64,000 bases of DNA from Candidatus Curtissbacteria bacterium (GTDB lineage Bacteria > Patescibacteriota > Microgenomatia > Curtissbacterales > GWA2-41-24), in NCBI GenBank assembly GCA_016183325.1, contig JACPEV010000009.1:1303-65302 (forward strand), read 5' to 3'. The notes beneath the pieces were generated by a model. That model was given only the letters and a program-made list of their open reading frames with translations, ran no database searches and was not told the origin of the DNA. Both the position numbers and the translations under genes were made by a program. This document shows, one piece after another, positions 2 to 59,194 of the stretch (the stretch's first letter is position 1; each line of letters begins with the position of its first letter).

Positions 2-199
2 CAATTCTACATTAGGACAACCGATGTTACGGGTGAAGCCACTCTCCCCGAAGGAACCGAAATGGTTATGCCCGGTGATAACATCAAAATGAAGGTAAAA
101 CTTATCGTTCCGGTTGCCATGGAAGAGGGCCTTAGATTTGCTATCCGCGAAGGCGGCCATACTGTCGGGGCCGGCGTGGTAAGCAAAATCATTGCCTAA
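2..199 (+). CDS. tuf: Elongation factor Tu, C-terminal fragment (5' end outside window)
   Basis: Frame-2 translation ...RPQFYFRTTDVTG...[17 protein letters not shown] is the conserved EF-Tu C-terminus; stop TAA 197-199. Confidence 0.9.
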
Positions 200-207
200 C
201 GGCAGCT

Positions 208-275
208 AATCCCCCCCCGCCTCGCTCGACGCGAGTCGAGGCGGGCAAGATTTGATCAAGGGGGATTTTTTTTGA
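208..275 (+). terminator. Putative intrinsic terminator after tuf: nested GC-rich hairpin plus T8 run
   Basis: aatccccc(208-215)/gggggatt(261-268) outer stem enclosing cccgcctcg/cgaggcggg inner stem; tttttttt 266-273. Confidence 0.5.
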
Positions 276-293
276 TATAATAACAAAGTTCTT

Positions 294-349
294 GGAGGTC
301 CGACCTCCGAAAACAGAGACACGACTAAGTTTTTAGAGGTCGGACCTCT
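294..349. repeat. Pair of related 15-nt palindromes (ggaggtccgacctcc / agaggtcggacctct)
   Basis: Each self-complementary; the second is flanked by a T-run and an A-run. Confidence 0.4.
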
Positions 350-540
350 AAAAAAAATTAGTTCGAGCGTAGTTTACACTGAGCGAAACCCTGTACCGGA
401 CGGTACGGGGCGAAGTCTTAGGGGTCGAGAACAACTATATATGAAATCAACAAGTTTAAGCTTCAAGCCTAACCGCTTAAGATAAAAAACTTCTCGACTC
501 ACTCTGCCGACTGGCTGATTCGCTCGACCGTTTGCTAAAC

Positions 541-660
541 TGTCATTCTGGGGAGTTCTGCTACTGGCAGAACGACACCGGAATCGATTCTGGACAAGCC
601 CTTCGATTACACTCAGGACAATTCAAGGGCAATGAGCAAAGTCGAATTGCCAGAATGACA
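541..660 (+). repeat. Inverted-repeat structured element, copy 1 (TIR tgtcattctgg ... ccagaatgaca), ~120 nt
   Basis: Perfect 11-bp terminal inverted repeats. Shares actgtcattctggggagt and gattctggNcaagcc with the copy at 4631-4701. Lies immediately upstream of ORF 701-1060. Confidence 0.6.
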
Positions 661-700
661 AAAATAAAAAAGGAGCACTTGCCAGAAAGGAGTGACATAG

Positions 701-1060
701 ATGTTACAACAAGAAAGAGTCAGAAATCTTAGAGAGAACCTTGATCTTGCAAATATAGAAAATACAAGATTAAGAGAACAACTGAGATTAGCAGAAGAAA
801 TTGGTCAAGTTGAGCGTCGAGGTCTATCAATACCGGAATCTGATGCTATAGTGAATTGGATTCAAGAAAACGAAGCAAGGCGAGTAAGAGTCGAAGGCAT
901 ACTCGATAAGACTTACGTTTATGAGCTGCCCGACAACCAAAAAATAGCATTACATCAAACCGACGGAACACATTATTTTAGCGGGATTACTGCTACAGAA
1001 AAGAGTGTTCAAAGTTTAGAAGAACTTGGAGTTCTCGAAAAGAAAGCTACAAGAAGTTGA
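701..1060 (+). CDS. Hypothetical protein (119 aa) between tuf and rpsJ
   Basis: ORF with RBS aaaggagtga upstream of the ATG; no recognisable motif; preceded by TIR element copy 1. Confidence 0.5.
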   Translation: MLQQERVRNLRENLDLANIENTRLREQLRLAEEIGQVERRGLSIPESDAIVNWIQENEARRVRVEGILDKTYVYELPDNQKIALHQTDGTHYFSGITATEKSVQSLEELGVLEKKATRS

Positions 1061-1201
1061 ACAAAAAACTAATAGCTAGTCGCCAATAGCCAATAGCTAA
1101 TTAAATAGCACATTAATAAACGGTTATCAGGTAATCGGGTAATCAGGATATTGGGAAAAATCCCGACAACCAGAAAACCTGATAGCCCGAAAACCTAAAT
1201 T

Positions 1202-1510
1202 ATGCCAAAAGGTAGAATTCGAGTCAGACTTAAAGCCTATGACGCACGAGTAATCGATGCGGCTTGTCGGGATATCATCAATACCGCACTTGGTACAGGC
1301 GCCAAAATCTCAGGCCCAATACCTTTGCCGACAAATATTCAAAGACTTACCGTTTTGACAAGCCCCCACACCGATAAAGACGCTCGTGAGCAATTTGAAA
1401 TGCGAGTTCACAAAAGATTAATCGATATTATTGAACCGACAAACAAAACCATTGACTCGCTGACTCATTTAGATTTACCAGCTGGAGTCGATATAGAACT
1501 TAAGATGTAA
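1202..1510 (+). CDS. rpsJ: 30S ribosomal protein S10
   Basis: [14 protein letters not shown]...GPIPLPT... classic S10. Confidence 0.95.
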
Positions 1511-1529
1511 ATCCGAAATCCGAAGTACG

Positions 1530-1880
1530 AAATCATTGTATGAAGAAATTAGTTACTGGAAATTAGAAAATTGTAATGGAAAGTAGAAAATAGAAAATGG
1601 ATAATAAATTATAACTATTTTCCAATCTCAATCTGCCATTTCCAATTTCCAGTTTCTAGAAACTATTTTCTAGAATACAGAATTGTTTCGAATTTCGATA
1701 TTCGAATTTCGAATTTTCAATAAATCTGGAGGTTGCAAAGCAAAATTTAATAACTAAATAGACCATTAACGATTAACAATAAACGATACACGTTAATTGG
1801 TGGGACGCCTGAAAACATCTAAGGAGCCCCGCCTTTTTGGTACGAAAACATAAGTTTATTAAGTAGTTTTAATAACGAGC
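1530..1880. repeat. Unusual 370-nt rpsJ-rplC spacer with long imperfect dyad symmetry and a tandem cgaatttcga motif
   Basis: ctggaaattagaaaat...ggaaagtagaaaatagaaaatgg mirrored by ccatttccaatttccagtttctag; cgaatttcgatattcgaatttcgaatttt. Confidence 0.4.
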
Positions 1881-2654
1881 ATGATAAATACATTGTTAGG
1901 TATCAAAAAAGAAATGTCGGCAAGATTCGATCGGTTTGGTCGACGACTGCCGGTGACAGAAATTTATGCCGAGCCCAACATAGTCGTTGTTCAAAAGGAT
2001 GGGAGAATCTTAATTGGAGCTGGGCAAAAAAAGAGAGCCAGAAAAACCGAGAATGCCTTTGTTCAGGCAGCCGGTTTTGCGCCAAGGCTGGTTAAAGAAG
2101 TAAAAGTTGATCAACAAGAAATCAAGCCGGGAACTAAAGTCGATGTATCCATATTTGGACCGGGAGACGAAGTCAAAATAACCGGAGTAACCAAGGGAAA
2201 GGGATTTACAGGCGTTGTCAAAAGATGGGGTTTTGCCGGAGGTCCGAAGACTCACGGACAAAGCGATCGTCATCGTGCACCAGGTTCAATCGGCCAAACC
2301 ACCACACCTGGCAGGGTTTATAAAGGCAAAAAGATGGCTGGCCATATGGGTGTAGCCAAATTAACAATTACGGGGCTTGAAGTCATAGAAGTGGATGCCA
2401 AAAGCAATCTACTTATTGTAAAAGGTTCGGTTCCTGGTGCCAGAAACGGTTATTTGGTAATCGAAAAAACGGGAAAAGTAAAGGGGTACACTCCGCCCCC
2501 TGAACCAAAAGAGGAGCCGGAAGAAGAAGTTAGATCAGAAAAGACTGCAACCGCTGAAAACGCTGAAAAGAACACTGAGAACACTGAAAATCCAGGAGGA
2601 TACCCCCGGAGTGAAGTCGAGGCGTTTCCTGGAAAACACCCCGGGGGTGAGTAA
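1881..2654 (+). CDS. rplC: 50S ribosomal protein L3 with ~45-aa C-terminal extension
   Basis: ...GKGFTGVVKRWGFAGGPKTHGQSDRHRAPGSIG... L3 core; extension ...ENAEKNTENTENPGGYPRSEVEAFPGKHPGGE. Confidence 0.95.
   Translation: MINTLLGIKKEMSARFDRFGRRLPVTEIYAEPNIVVVQKDGRILIGAGQKKRARKTENAFVQAAGFAPRLVKEVKVDQQEIKPGTKVDVSIFGPGDEVKITGVTKGKGFTGVVKRWGFAGGPKTHGQSDRHRAPGSIGQTTTPGRVYKGKKMAGHMGVAKLTITGLEVIEVDAKSNLLIVKGSVPGARNGYLVIEKTGKVKGYTPPPEPKEEPEEEVRSEKTATAENAEKNTENTENPGGYPRSEVEAFPGKHPGGE
2637..2649. repeat. In-frame palindrome caccccgggggtg (encodes HPGGE) in the rplC 3' end
   Basis: 17-nt acaccccgggggtgagt is identical to 17902-17918 in rplM; related cacccccggggtg at 48945 in purL. Confidence 0.6.
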
Positions 2655-2662
2655 AGACCGCA

Positions 2663-3481
2663 ATGTCAAACAAAAAGCAAAAAAGATCCAAAATCGCTAA
2701 GACCCGTATCAAAACCGGATCTAAAACCATAGATAAAAAAAAGATCACAGAAGGCACTGAAAATAAATTGAAGGCACAGAAAAGAACGGCTAAAAAATCA
2801 GCGCCCTCAAATATCTCAGTACCTTCAGTGATCACAAAACAATCAGGACCCTCAAAACTTGCAATCAAATCAGTATCCGCTAAAGTCTTTAATATGCAGG
2901 GTAGGGGCCTAGGTGTCGTTGCCCTCCCTAAAGCAATTTTTGGACATTTGCCAAATCAAAATTTACTTGCTCAAGCCATCAGGGTCTATGTGGCCAACAG
3001 TCATCCGCACACGGCTCACACTAAAACTCGAGCGGAAGTCGCCGGCGGAGGCACCAAACCTTGGCGCCAAAAAGGCACTGGCAGGGCTCGAGCCGGATCA
3101 ATCCGTTCACCGCTTTGGGTTGGTGGAGGCACGACTTTTGGTCCAAGGACAAAAGATACCAAGCTTTCACTGCCTAAAAAAATGAAGCATAAAGCATTAA
3201 TTGACGCGCTATCTGCAAAAGCTAAAGCTGGCGACATCAAAGTGATTTCAAATATTGAAAAAGTAGAGCCAAAAACCAAAAAGATTGCCACACTCTTGAA
3301 AAAGTTAGATGTTGGTAAAAATACTCTTCTTATTGTTTCCGAAAGAACCAAGAACGTTCATTTAGCCACACGTAACATCCCAAATATTAAAGTAGACATA
3401 CCTTCAAACCTAAACGCCTACGAAGTTACTAAAAATAATGACTTGTTAATCTCAAAGGAATCCCTACCCAAATTTAAATGA
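2663..3481 (+). CDS. rplD: 50S ribosomal protein L4 with Lys-rich ~75-aa N-terminal extension
   Basis: ...[42 protein letters not shown]... L4 core; start 9 nt after the rplC stop. Confidence 0.9.
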
Positions 3482-3801
3482 AACCAACTGACCTAATTAA
3501 AACATCAATCCTTTCCGAAAAAGCTTACAAGCAGATGGAAAATGGTATCTATACATTCTTGGTTGATAAGAGGTCAACCAAGAATCAAATAGTCAAAGCC
3601 GTCGAAAATCAATTCGCCGTTAATGTCATTCGGGTTAACGTATCTAAAAAATCTTTCAAGATGAAAAGAATTGGCAGGACTCGAAAACAAGCAAAAGTAG
3701 GCGGCGGCAAAAAAGCCATTGTCTATCTTAAAGCAGGCCAAAATATCGCAATTCTAAGTCCATCTAAAAAAGAAACTAAAAGCATTAAAAAGGAGAAATA
3801 A
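3478..3801 (+). CDS. rplW: 50S ribosomal protein L23
   Basis: L23-like sequence and operon position. Confidence 0.9.
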   Translation: MKPTDLIKTSILSEKAYKQMENGIYTFLVDKRSTKNQIVKAVENQFAVNVIRVNVSKKSFKMKRIGRTRKQAKVGGGKKAIVYLKAGQNIAILSPSKKETKSIKKEK

Positions 3802-4623
3802 ATGTTTAAAATTTCCAAACCCACAACTCCAGGACAAAGATTTAAATCGACTTTATCCTTCGACGAGATAACAAAAACCAAACCGGAAAAATCCTTAATC
3901 GCAAGGCTTAACAAGACAGCTGGTAGGTCGCTGGGAATTGTTACAGTCAGAGGAAAGGGGGGAGGTGCCAAACGAAATTTAAGATTTATAGATTTTAAAA
4001 GAGATAAAAGAGATGTCGTGGCAAAAGTAGCGGCGATTGAATACGATCCAAACAGATCTGCCAATATTGCTCTCCTTCACTATGTTGATGGAGAAAAAAG
4101 ATACATCCTATCCCCGGTTGGTCTTGCTGTTGGGCAGGAAGTTATCGCCAGCGAAAAAGCGCCAATTAAGACCGGTGATGCCCTGCCGCTTGGCAAAATG
4201 CCAGTTGGCACTGTCATTCATAATATTGAGCTTACGCCAGGTAGCGGTGGTCAAATTGTCAGATCTGCCGGCGTCGGTGCAATCGTTGCCGCCAGAGAAG
4301 GAGAATATGTCCACGTTAAACTTCCTTCAAAAGAGATTCGCAAGATTAGTGCTGCAAGTTTTGCCACAGTAGGTCAAGTTGGCAACGTTGATTGGAAAAA
4401 TATCAAAATCGGAAAAGCAGGAAGATCAAGACATATGGGTAAAAGGCCTAAAGTTCGAGGAGTTGCCATGGATCCAAGATCACATCCCCACGGTGGTGGA
4501 GAAGGCAGATCCGGCACGGGTATGCATCCCAAAACCAGAACAGGCAAACCTGCCATGGGCAAAAAAACCCGAAATCCCAACAAACCATCAAGTAGATTTA
4601 TTCTTGAGAGGAGAAAGAAATGA
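3802..4623 (+). CDS. rplB: 50S ribosomal protein L2
   Basis: ...[34 protein letters not shown]... L2. Confidence 0.95.
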
Positions 4624-4630
4624 TTTTTAC

Positions 4631-4701
4631 TGTCATTCTGGGGAGTGAAACGACTCCAGAATCAAAATACGAAAAAAGATTCTGGTCAAGCCAGAATGAC
4701 A
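4631..4701 (+). repeat. Inverted-repeat structured element, copy 2 (same TIRs as 541-660), 71 nt
   Basis: tgtcattctgg 4631-4641 and ccagaatgaca 4691-4701; starts 8 nt after the rplB stop; internal hairpins ggagt-gaaac-gactcc and tctggtcaagccaga. Confidence 0.6.
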
Positions 4702-4720
4702 ATAAACTAAAGGAGAAAAA

Positions 4721-5056
4721 ATGACAGCAGAGCATTTTAAGGACACTATTAATTACGACACTGTGAGGCTCAAAAATATAGACGCTGTGTATGAAAATAG
4801 TGCAGCTATTGCTCCGGAACGGACGATTTTAATTGCGACTGGGATTGATGGAGAAACAGATTATCAGTTTGAGAGATTAGCAAGGACTCACGAGGAGGCA
4901 CAAGAATATATTCAGAGTCAAAACGAGTCAGGCACAAGAATCATAGGTAGACCGGCCGACCCGTTAGCTGCTGAAGTTTGGAAGACAATTAGGTATTACG
5001 ACTTTGGTGTCGGAATTTGGAAGCAAATAGAAACATTAGAAAGGATGGATCAATGA
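4721..5056 (+). CDS. Hypothetical protein (111 aa) inserted between rplB and rpsS
   Basis: Strong RBS aaggagaaaaaATG; 4-nt ATGA overlap with the rpsS start; no recognisable motif. Confidence 0.55.
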
Positions 5057-5337
5057 GTAGATCGAGTAAGAAAGGTCCTTATGTAGATGCAAAGTTACTC
5101 AAAAAGGTCTTGAGCCAGAAGGAGTCTGGCAAGAAGGAGCCGATTAAAACTTGGGCAAGAGCCAGCCAAATTCCTCCGGAATTTGTCAACCACACATTCT
5201 CGGTGCATAACGGTCGCGTATTTATAAACGTTTTTGTGTCAGAAGGTATGGTCGGCCACAGACTTGGCGAATTTGCTCCGACCCGAGTTTTTAGAGGTCA
5301 CGGAAAGATTACAGAGAAAGCAAGAGCAAAGAAGTGA
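5053..5337 (+). CDS. rpsS: 30S ribosomal protein S19
   Basis: [12 protein letters not shown]...HNGR...[12 protein letters not shown]19; start chosen at the internal ATG matching the canonical S19 N-terminus. Confidence 0.9.
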
Positions 5338-5400
5338 TTAATCAATTAGTTATGAGAAGTATAGAACTAAACTACTCATTACTAAACTGCTCATAACAAA

Positions 5401-5844
5401 ATGATAGTTACCGCTACAGCTAAAAATGTCAGATTATCGCCCGAAAAGGCTCGTCTCGTCGTGGCGCAAATAAAAAAAATGAAGCCTTCCTATGCGATTG
5501 CAATTTTAGATCATGTTCACAAATCTTCATCACCAATTCTAAAAAAGGTGATCAAATCTGCCATTGCCAATGCTAAGAATAATTTCAATTTGGATGAGAA
5601 AACACTTACCTTTAAAGAAATTTTAGTTGGAAAAGGCCCGGTTTTTAAAAGATATAGAGCCGTCGCCAGAGGTAGAGCCCATTCTATTTTAAAGCGAACA
5701 AGCAATATAAAAGTGGTTTTAGAAGGAGAAAAAACAAAAGAGGTATCAAAAGTATCACAGGTACCAGAAGTATCACAGGACAAATCAAATATACGAGAAC
5801 GTATTTTTGATAAATCGAAAAGTAAAGATCAAAAATCAAAATGA
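5401..5844 (+). CDS. rplV: 50S ribosomal protein L22 with C-terminal extension partly encoded by a dispersed repeat
   Basis: L22 core ...RYRAVARGRAHSILKRTSNIKVVLEG...; tail ...NIRERIFDKSKSKDQKSK overlaps the repeat at 5783-5846. Confidence 0.9.
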   Translation: MIVTATAKNVRLSPEKARLVVAQIKKMKPSYAIAILDHVHKSSSPILKKVIKSAIANAKNNFNLDEKTLTFKEILVGKGPVFKRYRAVARGRAHSILKRTSNIKVVLEGEKTKEVSKVSQVPEVSQDKSNIRERIFDKSKSKDQKSK

Positions 5845-5846
5845 CA
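5783..5846. repeat. 62-nt dispersed repeat, copy 1 (diverged), containing the TTTT(T/C)GAT-AA-ATCGAAAA palindrome
   Basis: Aligns to 6589-6648 and 14445-14504. Confidence 0.6.
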
Positions 5847-5943
5847 AACCTATATTTATTGTTAGACTCATCACTCATCACTTACTCGCCTCGCTTCGCT
5901 CGCGAAGCGGGTCACTCATCACTACCGACCGAAGGGAGGTCTT

Positions 5944-6582: not shown

Positions 6583-6588
6583 TAAATC

Positions 6589-6648
6589 AAAAATCAAATA
6601 TACCAAAGCGTATTTTCGATAAATCGAAAAGCAAAAATCAAAATGACA
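6589..6648. repeat. 62-nt dispersed repeat, copy 2
   Basis: aaaaatcaaatataccaaagcgtattttcgataaatcgaaaagcaaaaatcaaaatgaca; near-identical to 14445-14504. Confidence 0.7.
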
Positions 6649-6765
6649 TGTAAAAATTTAAAAACTATAAAATCCAAAATTGTAGCTTGCTTTGCAAGTA
6701 CAATTTTGTCCATTAAGGGAAAGGGAATATTAAGGGAAAACCGCTAGGTTTGCCCTTAAAGTTAT

Positions 6766-14434: not shown

Positions 14435-14444
14435 TAGTTAATTT

Positions 14445-14504
14445 AAAAATCAAATATACCAAAGCGTATTTTCGATAAATCGAAAAGCAAAAATCAAAAT
14501 GACA
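14445..14504. repeat. 62-nt dispersed repeat, copy 3
   Basis: Near-identical to 6589-6648; followed by ttccattttccattttcaattttcca. Confidence 0.7.
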
Positions 14505-14565
14505 AGCAAAAACTTTCCATTTTCCATTTTCAATTTTCCATTAACTGCGACTGAAAGGAGCTATT

Positions 14566-21492: not shown

Positions 21493-21612
21493 TTAAATAA
21501 TTGGTCGACCGAATTTTATTAAATTTTCTTTCTTTTCTCTTCGCCATTTTTTGATTTGAGCTTCCCTTTGTCTTGCTTTTTTCAGTGTAGGATATTCTTT
21601 ATATACGAGTCC
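21493..21612 (-). pseudogene. C-terminal remnant (~39 aa) of a small GIY-YIG (UPF0213-type) nuclease gene
   Basis: GLVYKEYPTLKKARQREAQIKKWRREKKENLIKFGRPII matches the GIY-YIG C-terminus (ELVYyEef.tkseAlkrEkqiKkWsRaKKeaLI). The upstream in-frame sequence is tRNA-derived (GSSPASPT); no GIY...YIG N-terminal half in any frame. Confidence 0.5.
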
Positions 21613-21615
21613 AAA

Positions 21616-21668
21616 AGTCGGAGAGGCGGGACTCGAACCCGCGACCCCCAGACCCCCAGCCTGGTGTG
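21616..21668 (-). other. tRNA-like 3' fragment (anticodon arm CCAGG-CTGGGGG-TCTGG, canonical T-arm GCGGGTTCGAGTCCCGC, 3' acceptor strand) with no 5' acceptor/D-arm
   Basis: Minus-strand reading ...CCAGGCTGGGGGTCTGGGGGTCGCGGGTTCGAGTCCCGCCTCTCCGA; no complementary GGAGAGG within 150 nt. Confidence 0.35.
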
Positions 21669-21671
21669 CTA

Positions 21672-21734
21672 GCCTCAGCCAAAGGCTGATCGTCCTCTGG
21701 ACAAAACTGTCAGCCAAAGGCTGATCGTCCTCTG
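21672..21734. repeat. Tandem duplication of a 28-nt unit (tcagccaaaggctgatcgtcctctggac x2, 7-nt spacer)
   Basis: Exact copies at 21672-21699 and 21707-21734, adjacent to the tRNA-like fragment. Confidence 0.8.
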
Positions 21735-21766
21735 GACGAAACTGGAAACAACAAATCTTGCTAAAT

Positions 21767-21843
21767 ATGTCGGGGTACTCGGTTCCGCCCCGAGGACCTC
21801 ACGCACCCCATGCGTGCGCTCTGCCTATCTGAGCTATACCCCG
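21767..21843 (-). tRNA. tRNA-Pro (anticodon GGG); T-loop non-canonical (GGCGGAA)
   Basis: Minus strand CGGGGTA-TA-GCTC-AGATAGGCA-GAGC-G-CACGC-ATGGGGT-GCGTG-AGGTC-CTCGG-GGCGGAA-CCGAG-TACCCCG-A; 7-bp acceptor, 4-bp D, 5-bp anticodon and 5-bp T stems all pair; no encoded CCA. Confidence 0.7.
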
Positions 21844-21959
21844 AACAGAATGAGGGGTATATCAGACGTAGTGCTGATTTACCCCGTCTTGGTAAAGAGG
21901 ATTATATTTTATCACTAAACGTTTGACAATAAAATCTGCCCCATTTCATAATTAAAATA

Positions 21960-22200
21960 ATAACTCATGTTACGCAAACTTCCTTGTCATTCCCATGAAA
22001 ATGGGAATCTATATGCATAAAGAGTCGGGATTCCCGCTCTGGAATTAATAAATTCCGAGTCGTAGACTTACGCGGGAATGACAATGCGTAAGGTGAGATA
22101 ATAACTATGACGATACGAATCATCGTAGTTAAAGTTCGGCTGACCTTACCCCACTTTGGTAACAGATGATGATAGTCTTCAGATAAAAAGGGCAAAGTTC
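21960..22200. other. Highly structured ~240-nt noncoding region between tRNA-Pro and recA (multiple gggaat/attccc inverted repeats)
   Basis: ttacgca...ttgtcattccc (21963-21995) pairs with gggaatgacaa tgcgtaa (22073-22090); internal palindromes ggaattaataaattcc and acgatacgaatcatcgt; only a spurious 76-aa antisense ORF. Confidence 0.4.
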
Positions 22201-29078: not shown

Positions 29079-29192
29079 GTAACTGTTCACCGTTACTGAC
29101 ACAACGCATATTGTTCGAGGCTGAAAGCCGAGAACTAAACTTCTCGCTCACGCTCGAAGAGTAATAACGTGTCAGCGATTGTGAACTCTTAC
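29079..29192 (+). repeat. 114-bp exact repeat, copy A (MITE-like; terminal inverted repeats gtaa-ctg-ttcac ... gtgaa-ctc-ttac)
   Basis: Identical base for base to 55393-55506; sits 10 nt upstream of dgkA. Confidence 0.85.
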
Positions 29193-30967: not shown

Positions 30968-32305
30968 TCATCTCCACGTCGGAAGCCACATATATTTATC
31001 TATCGCAGCTACTTCAATCGGCCAACCAGAGGAAATTGGATAAAAATAGAAGAAAACAACAGCCACCAGAATTAAAAATATCAACACCAAATATTTCGCT
31101 CTACTTTTGTAAATTTGAAAAAGTGCCACTCCTAAAGCTATCGCCAAAAATGGAAGAGATGGAAGATAGTGGTGTAAAAAAAGTATCCTTGGGGTAAAAA
31201 CGAATGGTAGCCAAAAGATAAAGTATCCCAGAAGTATCAGTAAATATTTCTTTTCTCTTTCCGCAATCAACCGCCCTACAATATAAGAAATAGCCACTAA
31301 TCCTGCCCAAAAAATTAAAGGATTTCCAAGCGCATAAATATAACCGGCTTTTTCTCCCGCTTCGCCGCGAGGCGAGCGAGGCGAGCCGTATTGCTCGTAA
31401 GAAAAATACACGGGGCGTATATCAAGCGCCCAAGGGCAAAAAGTTTTTGGGCCACTGAGCCCTTTGGGAGCACAAAAAATCGGTGTCGTTGCGTACGAAT
31501 GCTCAAGATCTCCTCGACTTTGATACCACCAAATTTGTTGGTGCAAGTTATAAAATTGTTTAAAAGTGTAACCTTGAAGCCAAAATTGGCTGTAAGACAG
31601 AAGGTAAATCACTCCCGGGATAATAAATAAACTCAAAATTTTAGGGCTCACTAGCTTCTGCTTGAAATCATCCCAGAAGATATAAATAAAAAGAGCCAAT
31701 ATTGCCCAGAAACCTGTCCATTTAGTTGCAATCGAAAAACCTAAAAATAGACTCGTTAAAAATAAGAGAACTGATCTTTTCTTAACACCTCCGAGGTGGC
31801 TGAAGGACTCCTCGGAGGTGGACCTTACATAAAGAGCAGCAAAAATAAACGACATTAATACAAAAAATGTCACAAAAACGTCATTCATCGTAATGCGGCT
31901 CATGACAAATGTTAAATTTTCAAACGCTATAACAGTGGCAGCAAAAATCGCAACCACCGGCCCAAATAACAAATTAGCAAGAACAAAAGTTGCGCCAATT
32001 ATGCCTGTGCCAAAAATAGCACTTGGCAACCTCCACCCAAATGGCACGTCACCGAAAATCTTGATCGACCCCGCCTGAATCAACTTTGCCAGCGGTGGAT
32101 GCAGCCAATCATAAGCGGTTCCCTCTTTAGGTGCTGGAGAAAAAGGATCATAAGGCGCCGGATTATTGTCAGCGTAAGCTTTCGCCGTCACCGCATGATA
32201 AACTTCGTCAAAGTAGTAGTGACTGGGCTCTGTCAATCGGAATAAACGGATCGCCAAGGAAAAAACTGTCAAAAATATAAGAAGAACAAAAATTATTCTA
32301 TTCAT
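30968..32305 (-). CDS. GT-C fold glycosyltransferase, PMT/GT39-like membrane protein
   Basis: N-terminal YYFDEVYHAVTAKAY...YDWLHPPLAKLIQAGSIKIFG (DE motif); contains an in-frame palindromic insert at 31786-31820. Confidence 0.7.
   Translation of the reverse strand: MNRIIFVLLIFLTVFSLAIRLFRLTEPSHYYFDEVYHAVTAKAYADNNPAPYDPFSPAPKEGTAYDWLHPPLAKLIQAGSIKIFGDVPFGWRLPSAIFGTGIIGATFVLANLLFGPVVAIFAATVIAFENLTFVMSRITMNDVFVTFFVLMSFIFAALYVRSTSEESFSHLGGVKKRSVLLFLTSLFLGFSIATKWTGFWAILALFIYIFWDDFKQKLVSPKILSLFIIPGVIYLLSYSQFWLQGYTFKQFYNLHQQIWWYQSRGDLEHSYATTPIFCAPKGLSGPKTFCPWALDIRPVYFSYEQYGSPRSPRGEAGEKAGYIYALGNPLIFWAGLVAISYIVGRLIAEREKKYLLILLGYFIFWLPFVFTPRILFLHHYLPSLPFLAIALGVALFQIYKSRAKYLVLIFLILVAVVFFYFYPISSGWPIEVAAIDKYMWLPTWR
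31786..31820. repeat. In-frame inverted-repeat mini-element cacctccgaggagtcc...cacctcggaggtg (minus-strand orientation) inside the GT39-like gene
   Basis: Same arms as the element at 41806-41887 in miaA; encodes STSEESFSHLGGV. Confidence 0.7.
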
Positions 32306-43374: not shown

Positions 43375-43715
43375 AGAACGATCGCCCCGTACCATACGGT
43401 ACGGGGAGGAAAGTCCAGACAGCAGGAAGCAAAGGATCCCGCGTAAGCGGGGACTAGAAATAGCTGGTGTCTTGGCTCTTTACCCGCATGCGGAGCCAAG
43501 AACAGGTCTTGAGTTTACAAGACTTGAGAGCAACAGAGACGAGCGGGAGTGAAACGGGCAATCCTACTTGCTGCAACCCAGATTTGAACCGATCTAGCCA
43601 TAGGCTGGTCAGTCTTTGGCTAATGACCATGCTTCCGGGAGGTTCAGAGTAGGGGCATCCTGTTAAAAACCAGGACGAAGTGGCTAATTCGTCATTTCGA
43701 GATAGATGATCGTAA
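43375..43715 (+). ncRNA. rnpB: Probable RNase P RNA
   Basis: ccccgtacc-ata-cggtacgggg hairpin followed by GGAGGAAAGTCCAG (P4 5'-strand-like); ...GCAACAGAGAC...GTGAAACGGGC...; ~340 nt of hairpins with only a spurious 61-aa ORF. Confidence 0.5.
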
Positions 43716-55392: not shown

Positions 55393-55506
55393 GTAACTGT
55401 TCACCGTTACTGACACAACGCATATTGTTCGAGGCTGAAAGCCGAGAACTAAACTTCTCGCTCACGCTCGAAGAGTAATAACGTGTCAGCGATTGTGAAC
55501 TCTTAC
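55393..55506 (+). repeat. 114-bp exact repeat, copy B
   Basis: Identical to 29079-29192; 51 nt upstream of purP-1. Confidence 0.85.
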
Positions 55507-57927: not shown

Positions 57928-59194
57928 AATGTACAAAACGCAAAATTATTCTTCGAGCGAATCCGCCAACTGGCGGAGAAGTCGAGAAACTACCTCTGAA
58001 AATATAATAAATTTTAAGGTAAGTTCTCGACCTGCCCCGTACCGTATGGTAACGGGGCAAGCTCGAACAATAACGGTAGCTGTTTTGGGGAGCCACTCTG
58101 CTCTAGATGTCTGCCGAGGTGCCAAGGACGAGGGTTTAAAGACTTTAGTCATCGCAGAATATGGGCGCGACAAAACTTACGCAGAGTATTTTAAAACTAG
58201 AAGTCCTTCGACAAGCTCAGGACGATCTTCGATCGGTTGCGTTGATGAAGTTTTGTATGTTGATAAATTTAAAGATATTCTTTTGCCAAAAATTCAGAAG
58301 ATCTTAAAATCAAAAAATAGCATTTTCATCCCCCATCGTTCCTTTGAAGTCTATATCAACGATTATGACGCCATCGAAAACGACTTTAAAATTCCCATAT
58401 TTGGAAATCGTAAACTTCTGAGAATAGAAGAAAGGTCCGAAAAACCAAATCAATATGACCTTTTGAAACAAACCGGTATTAAGTACCCAAAAACATTTAA
58501 AGATCCAAAAGATATTGATACTATTGTTATTGTTAAAGTAAACGAAAAAGAAAGAAAGTACGAAAGAGCCTTTTTCCTTGCAAGCACTCGCAAGCAGTAT
58601 CAGTCCGAGTCAGAAAGGTTAATTAAAGCAGGAGTTATTACTAAAAAAGATCTGAATGCCGCAATAATTGAAGAATTTATTTTAGGAGTCCAAGTTAATT
58701 TCAACTTCTTCTATTCTCCAATTAGTCGTCGACTCGAATTAGTTGGAACAGATACCAGAAGACAAACTGATATAGAAGGAATTTTAAGATTGCCTGTTGA
58801 CAGACAAAAGGAAATTCTTGAAATGAAGACTAGAGCTGGAAATAAAAAAATCAATCCTCAGTGGGAAGAAGCGGGGCACATTGCTGTCACTACTTTGGAA
58901 TCCTTACTTGAGCCTGCTTTCGAAATCGGAGAAAAGTTTATCAAAGCGGCCCGACAGATGGTTCCACCCGGCGTCATCGGTCCATTCAGTCTGCAATCAG
59001 TCATCACTCCCGGCCCGCCTAAAAAGGAAATTGTTGTTTTTGATGTTTCTCCAAGAGTGCCCGGCTCCCCAGGTATATCAAGCACTCCCTACAGCGCTTA
59101 TTTGTGGGGTCAATCCGTCAGCATGGGTCGTCGAGTTGCCATGGAAATTAAAAATGCAATCTTTAGAAAAAAACTGAATAAAATATTGACTTAA
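57920..59194 (+). CDS. PurP-family ATP-grasp protein, paralog 2
   Basis: VAVLGSHSALDVCRGAKDEGL...IPHRSFEVYI...FGNR...NFFYSP...TDTRRQTD...GPFSLQ; start chosen at ATG 57920 (RBS aagggag), overlapping the purA stop. Confidence 0.75.
   Translation: MSKMYKTQNYSSSESANWRRSRETTSENIINFKVSSRPAPYRMVTGQARTITVAVLGSHSALDVCRGAKDEGLKTLVIAEYGRDKTYAEYFKTRSPSTSSGRSSIGCVDEVLYVDKFKDILLPKIQKILKSKNSIFIPHRSFEVYINDYDAIENDFKIPIFGNRKLLRIEERSEKPNQYDLLKQTGIKYPKTFKDPKDIDTIVIVKVNEKERKYERAFFLASTRKQYQSESERLIKAGVITKKDLNAAIIEEFILGVQVNFNFFYSPISRRLELVGTDTRRQTDIEGILRLPVDRQKEILEMKTRAGNKKINPQWEEAGHIAVTTLESLLEPAFEIGEKFIKAARQMVPPGVIGPFSLQSVITPGPPKKEIVVFDVSPRVPGSPGISSTPYSAYLWGQSVSMGRRVAMEIKNAIFRKKLNKILT

Follow-up and report, generated by a model that had tools for sequence, protein, structure and literature searches.

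Two short ORFs of the tuf-S10 ribosomal operon, each preceded by the same inverted-repeat element, raise the question of whether repeat and ORF belong together. In the window, that is, the whole 64-kb stretch of DNA that was analysed, they are the sole two orphan ORFs of the operon, and each lies directly downstream of one of the two element copies, a coincidence that weighs against the explanation preferred below. The first-pass annotation proposed either a MITE-like cassette that had carried the ORFs in or a cis-regulatory RNA controlling two novel ribosome-associated factors. Our analysis leads to a different explanation: most likely, the element is a selfish hairpin-pair repeat of the CGTC-tagged REP/SRM kind, two copies of which landed in the S10 operon, and the ORFs are orphans in variable slots with no dedicated pairing.

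A sequence check found both elements and both ORFs where the first-pass annotation had placed them. All genes and sites of the operon described here lie on the forward strand. The 3′ end of tuf (EF-Tu) occupies positions 1-198 (stop 196-198; the relatives' homologue carries Pfam GTP_EFTU_D3). Directly past the T-run of the tuf terminator, a putative S10-operon promoter is proposed at 252-281 from its consensus match (TTGATC-18-TATAAT with an extended -10, 10 of 12 matches); the string ...ttttttttg(a/c)tataat is likewise present in relatives. A conserved leader, which five Curtissbacteria also have, follows at 405-530, with outer stem GTCGAGAA/TTCTCGAC, a conserved 14-codon mini-ORF (441-485) and no match to an Rfam family. 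ORF1 (701-1060, 119 aa, annotated HYU92_02910, hypothetical) lies in the slot between tuf and rpsJ (S10, 1202-1510, orthologues with Pfam Ribosomal_S10). ORF2 (4721-5056, 111 aa, annotated HYU92_02940, hypothetical) lies between rplB (L2, 3802-4623), the coding gene directly upstream of the second element copy, and rpsS (S19, 5053-5337).

The window contains the 11-mer TGTCATTCTGG at four places and no others, namely as the perfect 11-bp inverted repeats that end copy 1 (541-660, 120 nt) and copy 2 (4631-4701, 71 nt, starting 8 nt past the rplB stop). The composite pattern TGTCATTCTGGGG-N20-50-GATTCTGG gave two matches as compared to 0 expected from shuffles, and the strings actgtcattctggggagt and gattctggNcaagcc, said to be shared, were indeed present in both copies. 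Each element consists of two inverted hairpin units with their tags outward, a 'head-to-head dimer'. A unit is made of an unpaired tag (C/T)GTC, a 7-bp stem ATTCTGG/CCAGAAT starting with A-T, T-A, a loop and an unpaired C. Units and linker are given here without strand. The left unit of copy 1 (541-585) shows tag TGTC, stem ATTCTGG/CCGGAAT, a loop with a nested hairpin GTTCTGC..GCAGAAC and the closing C; its inverted right unit (586-660) shows G, stem ATTCTGG/CCAGAAT with a 56-nt nested insert in the loop, and tag GACA. In copy 2, the left unit (4631-4663, 75.6 bits) reads TGTC, ATTCTGG/CCAGAAT around the loop GGAGTGAAACGACT, and C, and the right unit (4678-4701) reads G, ATTCTGG, loop TCAAG, CCAGAAT, GACA. 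The copies differ by the longer left-loop hairpin and the 56-nt insert of copy 1 and by the 14-nt A-rich linker of copy 2 (4664-4677), whose position is held by a GIY-YIG gene in related loci. The insert subfamily was also found in other Curtissbacteria (L032, L007, L058), and in L117 a homologous single unit sits in reverse orientation at the right-unit site of copy 1.

Predicted RNA folds of copies 1 and 2 (-45.5 and -27.7 kcal/mol, z about -5.8) were far better than those of shuffles, and DNA folds gave z values of about -5 to -5.7. The strict ATTCTGG family is compatible both with two hairpins and with one long terminal-repeat hairpin. In copies with different half stems, such as ATGCTGA/TCAGCAT with ATCCTGA/TCAGGAT, the two-hairpin fold alone is kept. 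Altogether, 32 variants favoured two hairpins, 5 the long hairpin, and 61 were neutral. Judged from sequence, this pattern of covariation points to two hairpins that form independently of each other and not to terminal repeats bound by a protein.

The element was then sought in contigs of species-representative genomes. It was present at no fewer than 114 loci, nearly all from Curtiss-, Davies-, Roizman-, Levy-, Gottesman- and Shapirobacteria and WWE3, and a covariance-model search of the same loci added about 20 copies that had diverged further. Among the loci listed, 107 of 122 pattern matches were complete, modular elements between 56 and 139 nt long. Within the matches listed, complete copies came nearly all from Microgenomates, several per genome; 52 of the 107 were intragenic, and 34 occupied the spacer between co-directional genes, with a median gap of about 19 nt behind the stop of the preceding gene and of about 17 nt ahead of the following start codon. 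Copies occurred in both orientations. In-frame copies were flanked by Pfam domains of GyrB, LeuRS, UvrA, ArgRS, GuaA, PPDK, an Ile/Val-type aminoacyl-tRNA synthetase, MurB and others, and one copy in Daviesbacteria supplies the tail at the C terminus of ribosomal protein L4 (rplD). No target-site duplication was consistent among the copies, and no clean pair of empty and filled sites was obtained to fix the insertion boundaries.

At four related loci (L007, L109, L026, L069), a 94-aa GIY-YIG gene (Pfam PF01541, E 1e-11 to 1e-13) lies exactly between the left and right units; the short elements therefore look like gene-less derivatives. The encoded proteins, which matched no NCBIfam family and no PDB sequence, are predicted GIY-YIG nucleases and putative members of cd10448. 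Of an ssn-like gene, the window holds a C-terminal fragment only (21502-21645) and no intact copy. The arrangement recalls Neisseria Ssn, a GIY-YIG nuclease of about 94 aa that binds hairpins as single-stranded DNA and cuts a few nucleotides upstream, the layout SRM-ssnA-SRM being typical (Chenal et al. 2025, PMC11893778). Its targets belong to the CGTC-tagged REP superfamily, which includes Rickettsia RPE-4/RPE-6 and Neisseria dRS3 (Di Nocera et al. 2013, PMC3733652) and whose members, dRS3/NTS among them, are now named Ssn-related motifs, SRM (PMC11893778). In the NTS (CGTCATTCCCGCG..CGGGAATCYRG), binding depends critically on the C that follows the palindrome, and cleavage on the 3 nt that precede it (PMC11893778). 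The present units likewise begin (C/T)GTCAT and end ..AT-C (compare CGTCATTCCCGCG..CGGGAATC), with an unpaired GTC before and a C after the palindrome, as the NTS bases that matter for cleavage and binding. They are hairpins inside the stated 20-50 nt range, are found in many copies per genome and flank single-domain 94-aa GIY-YIG genes on both sides. By analogy, an Ssn-type nuclease may recognise them. The stem sequence, however, differs: ATTCTGG, 7 bp and AT-richer, takes the place of ATTCCCGCG. The loop of the left unit is long and contains a conserved GGA..GAC as well as a nested hairpin; the units are not matched by the degenerate string published for SRM searches; about half of the copies are intragenic as compared to 2% reported for N. 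meningitidis, and the host group, Patescibacteria, is unmentioned in that study (PMC11893778).

The wider superfamily offers further parallels. CGTC-tagged REPs carry a terminal unpaired CGTC or, often, TGTC tag, their stems start with complementary A-T, T-A, tags-outside (HH) dimers predominate, heterodimers, variable spacers and nested inserts occur, and in-frame intragenic copies, including one in uvrA, add about 20-30 residues (PMC3733652); the 5-nt loop of the present right unit also fits. They differ in stem length (8-9 bp versus 7 bp here), in the CCA-like tail, which the present units lack, in their loops of 4-5 nt, much shorter than that of the left unit, and in their hosts, which that survey placed in five phyla, none of them CPR. 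It found no associated transposase (PMC3733652), whereas a GIY-YIG gene lies between units here and in Chenal et al. REPINs/BIMEs with RAYT (IS200/IS605-type tyrosine transposases) are also inverted REP hairpin doublets able to form one long hairpin, and are non-autonomous repeats linked to a single small enzyme gene with repeats on either side. Their tag is, however, GTAG rather than GTC, their enzyme a Y1 (HUH) transposase, and no RAYT adjoined the element among the copies examined. Classical MITEs (Neisseria Correia elements, Coxiella QMITEs) are likewise short, devoid of genes, present in many copies and bounded by identical inverted ends, and can be co-transcribed or inserted in frame in genes. 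Unlike them, the present element shows no detected target-site duplication, its covariation favours two independent hairpins over protein-bound terminal repeats, and no DDE transposase partner is evident. In our view, the Microgenomates repeat is a divergent family, new within a repeat class that is already known, and the orphan-gene slots are mildly interesting.

Both ORFs are probably real genes, translation being predicted from their sequence features. ORF1 has a Shine-Dalgarno GGAG 8 nt ahead of its ATG and ORF2 an AAGGAG 6 nt ahead, and the last four bases of ORF2 (ATGA, 5053-5056) hold both its stop and the start of rpsS, as first described. Searches among 5.8e9 proteins returned self matches only for both, as did an exhaustive HMMER search of 1.84e9 representatives for ORF2; the ORFs are thus lineage-restricted, without conservation. 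Neither matched Pfam, PHROGs, NCBIfam or PADLOC. The AF2 model of ORF1 (pLDDT 62, N-terminal helix at residues 2-37) had no fold match, and that of ORF2 reached pLDDT 45. It is possible, though on balance doubtful, that one or both are untranslated open frames in repeat-expanded spacer DNA. The lack of homologues, the low-confidence structure predictions, the repeat-rich spacers around them and codon scores of 0.065-0.087, under the long-gene mean of 0.18, would fit this; the scores are, however, similar to that of rpsS. Moreover, stop-free runs of 111-119 codons have P of about 3-6e-4 per frame (our calculation from base composition), the Shine-Dalgarno sites are well spaced, codon positions follow the coding-like order GC1>GC2>GC3, no repeat model matches within either ORF, and the slot ORFs of L119 and L121 abut or overlap S19 as well.

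The slots themselves are variable. The three closest genomes hold unrelated ORFs of 111, 136 and 151 aa, and in eight others the flanking genes are directly adjacent or separated by a 30-aa mini-ORF or by some 80-100 nt of spacer. No pairwise similarity was found among the slot ORFs, all six of which fall in clusters of 1-2 sequences each; as a control, the same genomes share a small rpsG-fusA ORF at 67-77% identity. ORF1 and ORF2 are therefore probably mutually unrelated, lineage-specific orphans in two variable operon slots. The slots could be likened to minimal mobile elements of Neisseria, reportedly described by Saunders and Snyder in 2002: whole-gene cassettes would be swapped between conserved genes by homologous recombination, and the hairpin repeats, together with an Ssn-type nuclease that works on DNA entering in single-stranded form, would promote or modulate exchange. 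Repeat-ORF adjacency would then have a cause, yet the repeat would be no regulator of the ORFs. The likeness concerns the ORF slots, not the repeat: conserved-gene junctions hold differing whole-gene cassettes or none per genome, often with dRS3-type repeats close by (reviewed in PMC3898611). Genomes with 81-84% identity in L2 indeed have unrelated ORFs at exactly the same positions, slots are empty elsewhere, and conserved flanks, the initiation region ttgccagaaaggag and atagcacattaa before rpsJ, surround the non-homologous ORFs. Repeat arrays are proposed to raise exchange at adjacent loci (PMC3898611), and NTS/Ssn modulate integration of transforming DNA (PMC11893778). Repeat units precede a slot ORF not only in the window but also in L117, which counts against our preferred explanation as well. 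Nevertheless, we consider such exchange unlikely: L119 and L121 have slot ORFs without the repeat, no donor copy of any cassette was found, and the genomes compared are different species-level lineages rather than strains. Unlike the Neisseria sites, the site here is inside the S10 ribosomal-protein operon, its cassettes are single orphan ORFs, and their exchange by transformation is hypothetical.

The two readings of the first-pass annotation are at best partly supported. The MITE-like one is broadly right in that a multi-copy, gene-less palindromic repeat with longer, GIY-YIG-carrying versions is what we observe; that it carried the ORFs in finds no support. An element and its ORF forming one mobile unit is very improbable, even if each ORF directly follows a copy and long versions do carry a gene. 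Known cargo sits between units, whereas ORF1 and ORF2 are outside complete two-unit elements; the repeat-model search found no unit downstream of either ORF; L117 shares the unit upstream of the tuf/rpsJ slot but has a different ORF there, and, among the matches listed, no other copy of the 107 precedes an ORF1 or ORF2 homologue. More than 100 other copies lack such cargo, and L119 and L121 have other ORFs in these slots with no element. A dedicated cis-regulatory RNA (leader, attenuator or protein-binding site) for two new ribosome-associated proteins is scarcely credible and largely refuted. The stable predicted folds, four mutually complementary 7-mers that allow alternative pairings in principle, and the position just upstream of each Shine-Dalgarno site would suit it. 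However, the element-RBS-ORF layout is generic wherever the repeat sits between co-directional genes, about half of the more than 100 copies elsewhere lie in coding sequences and both orientations occur, copies with unlike half stems rule out a conserved alternative-pairing switch, and no Rfam family matched. Relatives hold different ORFs without the element, or empty slots, and there is no conserved regulon because ORF1 and ORF2 are not conserved. Since the repeat is very common and the orphan genes in the variable slots are unrelated, the pairing does not amount to a dedicated regulatory system; the adjacency is best explained by both accumulating at the few insertion-tolerant junctions.

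For the selfish repeat, the unit-GIY-YIG-unit layout, as in Neisseria, suggests that the 56-139-nt elements are gene-less derivatives that multiplied as selfish or neutral DNA. Their landing sites would be the spacers of operons and, where the reading frame is kept, the linkers of housekeeping proteins; in the window, copy 1 would have landed in the 5′ leader of the S10 operon and copy 2 directly past rplB. Both copies may form stable hairpins in the polycistronic mRNA, with an effect that would be at most generic, either a barrier in RNA stability or processing or a break in rplB-to-ORF2 coupling. Such a break could be compensated by ORF2's own Shine-Dalgarno sequence and by an ATGA-linked bridging ORF. 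This 34-codon candidate (4620-4724, forward strand) runs through element copy 2, overlaps both the rplB stop and the ORF2 start as ATGA, and was also predicted by the gene caller on Logan contigs.

The window comes from a contig of Candidatus Curtissbacteria, in the Microgenomates of the Candidate Phyla Radiation. The tuf gene ends at position 198 and is followed by a terminator and a promoter-like site (252-281). Copy 1 of the element (541-660) stands downstream of the leader region and before ORF1 (701-1060; hypothetical protein HYU92_02910), with rpsJ (1202-1510) 3′ of the latter. Copy 2 (4631-4701) is found downstream of rplB (3802-4623) and is followed by ORF2 (4721-5056; HYU92_02940), which overlaps the start of rpsS (from 5053) by ATGA. 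The window sequence bears out the layout described in the first-pass annotation, with two elements and two ORFs within the tuf-S10 operon. The window contains exactly four occurrences of TGTCATTCTGG, namely the ends of both element copies, and the composite element pattern gave two matches as compared to none expected. Whether treated as RNA or as DNA, both copies fold far better than their shuffled counterparts, and both have TGTC/GACA at their outer ends. Copy 2 is a plain family member. In copy 1 the hairpin of the left loop is longer and the right loop contains a 56-nt insert, of a subfamily also present in other Curtissbacteria. A covariance model run over the 64 kb detected no third copy, the only weak match being to a related repeat at 21985-22083. 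Rfam covariance models gave no match at the gathering score in the window, and only a spurious miRNA match at E≤1 over 150-5400.

Species-representative genomes were scanned with the pattern TGTCATTCTGGGG-N20-50-GATTCTGG, and at least 114 loci were found to match. Among the matches listed, almost all hosts were Curtiss-, Davies-, Roizman-, Levy-, Gottesman- or Shapirobacteria, WWE3 or unclassified Patescibacteria, and a single genome often contributed several loci. Complete elements of 56-139 nt accounted for 107 of the 122 pattern matches listed; the others, from unrelated phyla and missing the right end, are chance matches. The element is modular. Its first module consists of TGTCATTCTGG, GGA, a variable small hairpin and GAC(T/A/G); the second of CCAGAATC, a linker of 0-30 nt and GATTCTGG; the third of either AC-AAG or a nested insert, followed by CCAGAATGAC(A/G). 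The shortest form measures 56-57 nt, according to whether the terminal A/G is counted. The covariance model added about 20 more diverged copies within the same loci. Leaving the tag unconstrained, the copies that it retrieved carried CGTC or TGTC, rarely AGTC or GGTC.

Viral contigs of IMG/VR contained neither the element nor any relative of ORF1 or ORF2, so a phage origin has no support. Logan contigs bearing ORF2 (runs SRR12113424 and SRR12113430) stop within the element, as expected of an assembly-breaking repeat. In the literature searched, we found neither the element sequence itself nor a link between the Candidate Phyla Radiation (CPR) and REP, MITE or RPE elements. Microgenomates genomes commonly contain the element and its relatives (GTCATTCCC.., GTCATTGCGAG.., GTCATCCTGA..), which thus matter for annotation: they break assemblies, lengthen housekeeping proteins, one ribosomal protein included, by 20-45 residues, and are open to being mistaken for regulatory RNAs. 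Many copies were found in MAGs from binchicken co-assemblies labelled 'uncultured Gammaproteobacteria' (loci L005, L017, L022, L025, L043, L047, L050, L057, L063, L068 and L075). The GyrB of L047 has the same insertion as that of Daviesbacteria L071, with nearly identical flanks. The taxonomic labels of these MAGs are probably wrong.

The four 7-mers of the element (ATTCTGG, CCAGAAT, ATTCTGG, CCAGAAT) permit two folds, a long hairpin formed by pairing of the ends or two separate hairpins. The long terminal-repeat hairpin is the predicted MFE fold. Within the strict ATTCTGG family, each fold is about 97% paired and double changes are marginally more frequent for the two-hairpin fold; the two folds are indistinguishable on this basis. 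The decision came from elements with different self-complementary stems in each half, namely ATGCTGA/TCAGCAT with ATCCTGA/TCAGGAT, ATTCTGG/CCAGAAT with ATTCCCG/CGGGAAT, and ATCCTGG/CCAGGAT with ATTCTGG/CCAGAAT. Because these elements retain only the separate hairpins, the long hairpin was rejected as the conserved structure. In a relaxed search, which included some chance matches, 32 arm variants favored two hairpins and 5 the long hairpin, 61 being neutral. Each unit therefore consists of (C/T)GTC, the two arms of a stem that begins with AT, with a loop between them, and finally a closing C. The element is two such units in inverted orientation, tags outside. The stem has 7 bp and begins with AT in every subfamily (ATTCTGG, ATCCTGA, ATGCTGA, ATTCCGG, ATTCCCG). 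The loop has 5 nt in the right unit (ACAAG/TCAAG) and at least 14 nt in the left one. The GTC preceding the palindrome and the C following it hardly vary, if at all, across 101 aligned copies.

Genomic contexts were classified from ORFs of at least 100 aa. Among the 107 copies in the matches listed, 52 are intragenic, 34 lie between co-directional genes, 7 between divergent and 3 between convergent genes, and 11 near locus ends. The co-directional spacers in these matches are essentially filled by the repeat, the upstream stop lying a median of about 19 nt away and the next start about 17 nt. Therefore, the succession of element, RBS and ORF seen at both window sites is a generic arrangement. 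Intragenic copies, again among the matches listed, continue the reading frame of the host gene in either orientation, the commonest translation being ..VILGSEATPES..DSGQARMT... Pfam domains flank in-frame copies in GyrB, LeuRS (twice), UvrA, ArgRS, GuaA, PPDK and MurB; they also flank copies in Ile/Val-type aminoacyl-tRNA synthetase, Wzy-like and PMT-like proteins. In two Daviesbacteria loci (L080, 3492-4412; L112, ~3039-3114), the repeat makes the in-frame C-terminal tail of ribosomal protein L4, reading ..KEAVN VILGSKTTPEFGKKDSGRALLARMT KKGKKK and then a stop that overlaps the rplW start. This copy also belongs to the S10 operon, just before rplW, and comes without an extra ORF. The length is a multiple of three in 24 of 43 intragenic copies, an enrichment that is not exclusive because the boundary definition is approximate. 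With three boundary offsets, the 107 copies showed no excess of 3-5-nt direct repeats; 2-nt repeats were in slight excess (11 and 15 observed as compared to 6.7 expected). The consistent target-site duplication of a classical TIR MITE was thus not found. In leuS, the proteins of L090 and L110 are too divergent at the second insertion site for defining boundaries.

In its tag, stem start and dimer layout, the element matches the CGTC-tagged REP superfamily. These REPs carry a CGTC tag, often TGTC or CCTC, an 8-9-bp stem whose first pairs are A-T and T-A, and a 4-5-nt loop; they mostly occur as tags-outside dimers (HH) with variable spacers, heterodimers and copies inside genes such as uvrA (Di Nocera et al. 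2013, PMC3733652). Rickettsia RPE-4/RPE-6 and Neisseria dRS3 belong to this superfamily, for which no associated transposase was reported (PMC3733652). The unpaired terminal TGTC/CGTC tag and the AT stem start are common to both. The stem of the element is shorter (7 bp), its right loop (5 nt) is within the REP range and its left loop (at least 14 nt) is larger. All 107 complete elements listed are tags-outside dimers, as the search pattern demanded, and 52 are intragenic. This intragenic fraction, about half among the matches listed, resembles that of Rickettsia RPEs and is unlike that of the Neisseria Transformation Sequence (NTS). The REPIN/RAYT system differs by its tag, GTAG instead of GTC, and by flanking a Y1 (IS200/IS605-type) transposase gene. 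In the few loci considered (L007 and L111), no Y1_Tnp/RAYT or other transposase lies between copies, the genes there being housekeeping or GIY-YIG genes.

In its long form, dRS3 is known as the NTS (CGTCATTCCCGCGMAVGCGGGAATCYRG; Chenal et al. 2025, PMC11893778). SsnA, a 94-aa single-domain GIY-YIG nuclease (cd10448), binds the NTS only as single-stranded DNA and cuts a few nucleotides upstream; binding depends critically on the C directly 3′ of the palindrome, and cleavage on the three bases 5′ of the palindrome (PMC11893778). The ssn genes are typically flanked by Ssn-related motifs (SRMs) across bacteria; Patescibacteria are not mentioned in that study (PMC11893778). The unpaired GTC before and C after the palindrome are exactly common to the NTS and the window units. 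The published SRM string HGTCWYN(0-2)YYVSBRHN(0-5)WNVSBRGN(0-2)RNCYNB had no match in the window and was failed by four test units, while the NTS consensus, used as a control, matched it. The TGTCAT of the units fits the 5′ part of the string, HGTCWY; the stem and loop part does not fit. This kind of element was already known from the 2013 and 2025 papers. What is new is a divergent family, abundant in the CPR and missed by a search with the published string, and its Rickettsia RPE-like intragenic fraction.

Pfam analysis of the ORFs between copies in L007, an element-bearing locus, led to a GIY-YIG protein independently of PMC11893778, and tblastn then gave relatives in L109, L026, L069 and L106. 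In L007 (5052-5561, where the annotated ORF continues through one and a half repeat copies), L109 (1844-2125) and L026 (6534-6815), both encoding 94 aa, and L069 (5066-5320, units with ATCCTGA-type stems), a GIY-YIG gene (Pfam PF01541) of about 94 aa is placed exactly between a left and a right unit. The left unit ends 0-20 nt before the start of the gene and the right unit lies 5-10 nt past its end. The flanking of a ~94-aa GIY-YIG gene on both sides, as in the SRM/Ssn system, is thus also seen in four related loci. In view of these unit-gene-unit loci, the short elements look like the gene-less form of a unit-ssn-unit module, the gene encoding a putative cd10448 (Ssn) nuclease. The Microgenomates GIY-YIG proteins had no NCBIfam match and no PDB sequence match. 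The Ssn nuclease-hairpin system would thereby extend to the CPR, and the 94-aa proteins of L109 and L026 paired with GTC-ATTCTGG..CCAGAAT-C are candidate new ssDNA-cutting specificities. In L106 (4301-4880), two more distant GIY-YIG genes adjoin tRNA-like sequences instead.

The window holds no intact flanked GIY-YIG gene, only a C-terminal fragment (21502-21645, minus strand). The related repeat at 21985-22083 is a second hairpin pair of the same architecture with NTS-like stems (GTCATTCCC..GGGAATC ... GGATTCCCGC..GCGGGAATGAC), located in a divergent intergenic region (21500-22090, minus strand). Adjacent sequence resembles parts of a tRNA, namely a 5′ half (~21790-21860) and a T-arm/3′ end (~21616-21650), split by a 35-nt tandem repeat (21675-21744) and followed by the Ssn-like GIY-YIG fragment. 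ARAGORN called no tRNA in the window.

ORF1 and ORF2 show no similarity to each other. They look coding, with 111-119 stop-free codons at 39% GC and GC1>GC2>GC3, and have good Shine-Dalgarno sites in addition to the overlap of ORF2 with rpsS. Neither these ORFs nor four slot ORFs of relatives matched anything in Pfam, PHROGs, NCBIfam or PADLOC. Among 5.8 billion clustered proteins, ORF1 and ORF2 matched only themselves, and exhaustive HMMER searching of 1.84 billion representatives with ORF2 added nothing beyond short matches, all to long and probably repetitive proteins. The AlphaFold2 models, predicted from single sequences, were of poor quality (pLDDT 62 for ORF1, 45 for ORF2), and Foldseek comparison of the ORF1 model with the PDB gave no match below E = 0.3.

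The loci of related genomes were compared at both junctions, the nearest L2 relatives being merely 81-84% identical. At rplB-rpsS, a 151-aa ORF is present in L121 (L2 84%) and a 136-aa ORF in L119 (83%); L117 (81%), the P0010 contig (80%), L127 (79%) and L125 (76%) have spacers of 102, 95, 79 and 32 nt, respectively, L124 (77%) has a 30-aa mini-ORF, and the two genes are adjacent in L122 (79%), L126 (79%) and L123 (78%). At tuf-rpsJ, there is a 105-aa ORF in L119, a 110-aa ORF in L117, a 29-codon mini-ORF in L123 and an ORF-less spacer in L122, L124 and L125; L121, P0010, L126 and L127 do not cover this junction. Hence rplB-rpsS contains unrelated ORFs of 111, 136 or 151 aa, a mini-ORF or nothing, and tuf-rpsJ unrelated ORFs of 119, 110 or 105 aa, a mini-ORF or nothing. 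The slot ORFs do not resemble each other, gave only self-matches by tblastn against all DNA examined, and each belong to a cluster of 1-2 sequences. As a control, a small rpsG-fusA ORF is 67-77% identical among L117, L124 and L125, showing that a conserved small gene is detectable at such distance. ORF1 and ORF2 are lineage-specific orphans in two variable slots. The control ORF (L117 3143-3415, L124 1348-1608, L125 1301-1582; 86-93 aa) belongs to no Pfam family and matches the GreA N-terminal coiled coil weakly, below threshold (NCBIfam E = 0.0017); the window begins downstream of its position.

Around the tuf-rpsJ slot, the DNA is conserved (the leader, 'ttgccagaaaggag', and, ahead of rpsJ, 'atagcacattaa'), unlike the ORFs themselves. 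The corresponding position in L117, 5′ of that genome's slot ORF, holds one unit in reverse orientation with about 82% identity to the copy 1 right unit, and after it a repeat of another subfamily. In L123 (~560-690), the mini-ORF before rpsJ uses the apparent original rpsJ start (ATGCC) and the rpsJ initiation region (AGCACATTAA..ATGCC) is duplicated on its flanks, possibly the footprint of a DNA insertion at the slot. No donor of slot cassettes was found among the species-level relatives compared.

A device dedicated to ORF1 and ORF2, one of the options in the first-pass annotation, would account for an element before an RBS and an ORF at both window sites. This arrangement is however generic, copies are widespread, and the slot ORFs of L119 and L121 have no element at all. 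Overall, the element belongs with the SRM/CGTC-REP hairpin-pair repeats, as selfish or neutral DNA that serves neither ORF in particular. Its hairpins could plausibly have a generic effect on the operon mRNA at the RNA level. More speculatively, a 34-codon ORF bridging rplB and ORF2 through copy 2, with two ATGA overlaps, could preserve translational coupling.

For the slots, the nearest known concept is the minimal mobile element of Neisseria, a site between two conserved genes that is occupied by different cassettes, exchanged through homologous recombination of the flanks, and that often has dRS3 repeats in its vicinity (PMC3898611); differing whole-gene contents are seen here too. It is doubtful that the repeats help to create or exchange slot contents. 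In a broader scenario, which we regard as improbable, tuf-rpsJ and rplB-rpsS would be cassette or gene-birth slots of one Curtissbacteria subclade, repeatedly receiving unrelated orphans that are coupled to ribosomal proteins and hence very highly made, with Ssn-type repeats, through single-strand nicking or recombination, as part of the creating or exchanging machinery. If so, the slot orphans would be candidate fast-evolving ribosome-, host- or phage-interaction factors. The orphan-gene slots of the S10 operon are a modest curiosity; lying within one of the most conserved operons of bacteria, they are a small case in which gene turnover at a highly expressed locus can be tested.

A leader of about 100 nt (405-530), located downstream of the S10-operon promoter and upstream of the element, is conserved in five Curtissbacteria (window, L117, L123, L124, L125). 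Its core ...CTTCAAGCCTAACCGCTT... is invariant, with an outer stem GTCGAGAA/TTCTCGAC, and a mini-ORF of 14-15 codons (441-485; MK(S/L)T S L S F K P N R L x, then stop) is in frame in all five. No Rfam family matched this region, which may represent an as yet undescribed r-protein leader. Several other palindromic repeats, most of them absent from relatives, have colonised the tuf-rpsJ spacer (200-540). They include a GC-rich palindrome within the tuf terminator loop (216-247; related copy at 31356-31383), a 26-nt inverted repeat pair (289-354), the hairpin CCCTGTACCGGACGGTACGGGG (389-410; repeats at 43385 and 58035) and a segment (502-527) with an inverted copy at 57953-57978. The rpsJ-rplC spacer (1511-1880) has 370 nt, as compared to 140-270 nt in relatives, and consists mostly of AT-rich long inverted repeats (~1538-1678) with only a spurious miRNA match in Rfam. 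A 77-nt direct repeat family (..AAATCAAATATACCAAAGCGTATTTTCGATAAATCGAAAAGCAAAAATCAAAATGACA..), 71-94% identical, occurs at the rplV 3′ end (5774-5850), in the rpsC-rplP spacer (6583-6659) and at 14.4 kb (14439-14515), and terminates in AATGACA as the hairpin repeats do. Finally, a perfect 114-nt direct repeat is found at 29079-29192 and 55393-55506, 26 kb apart.
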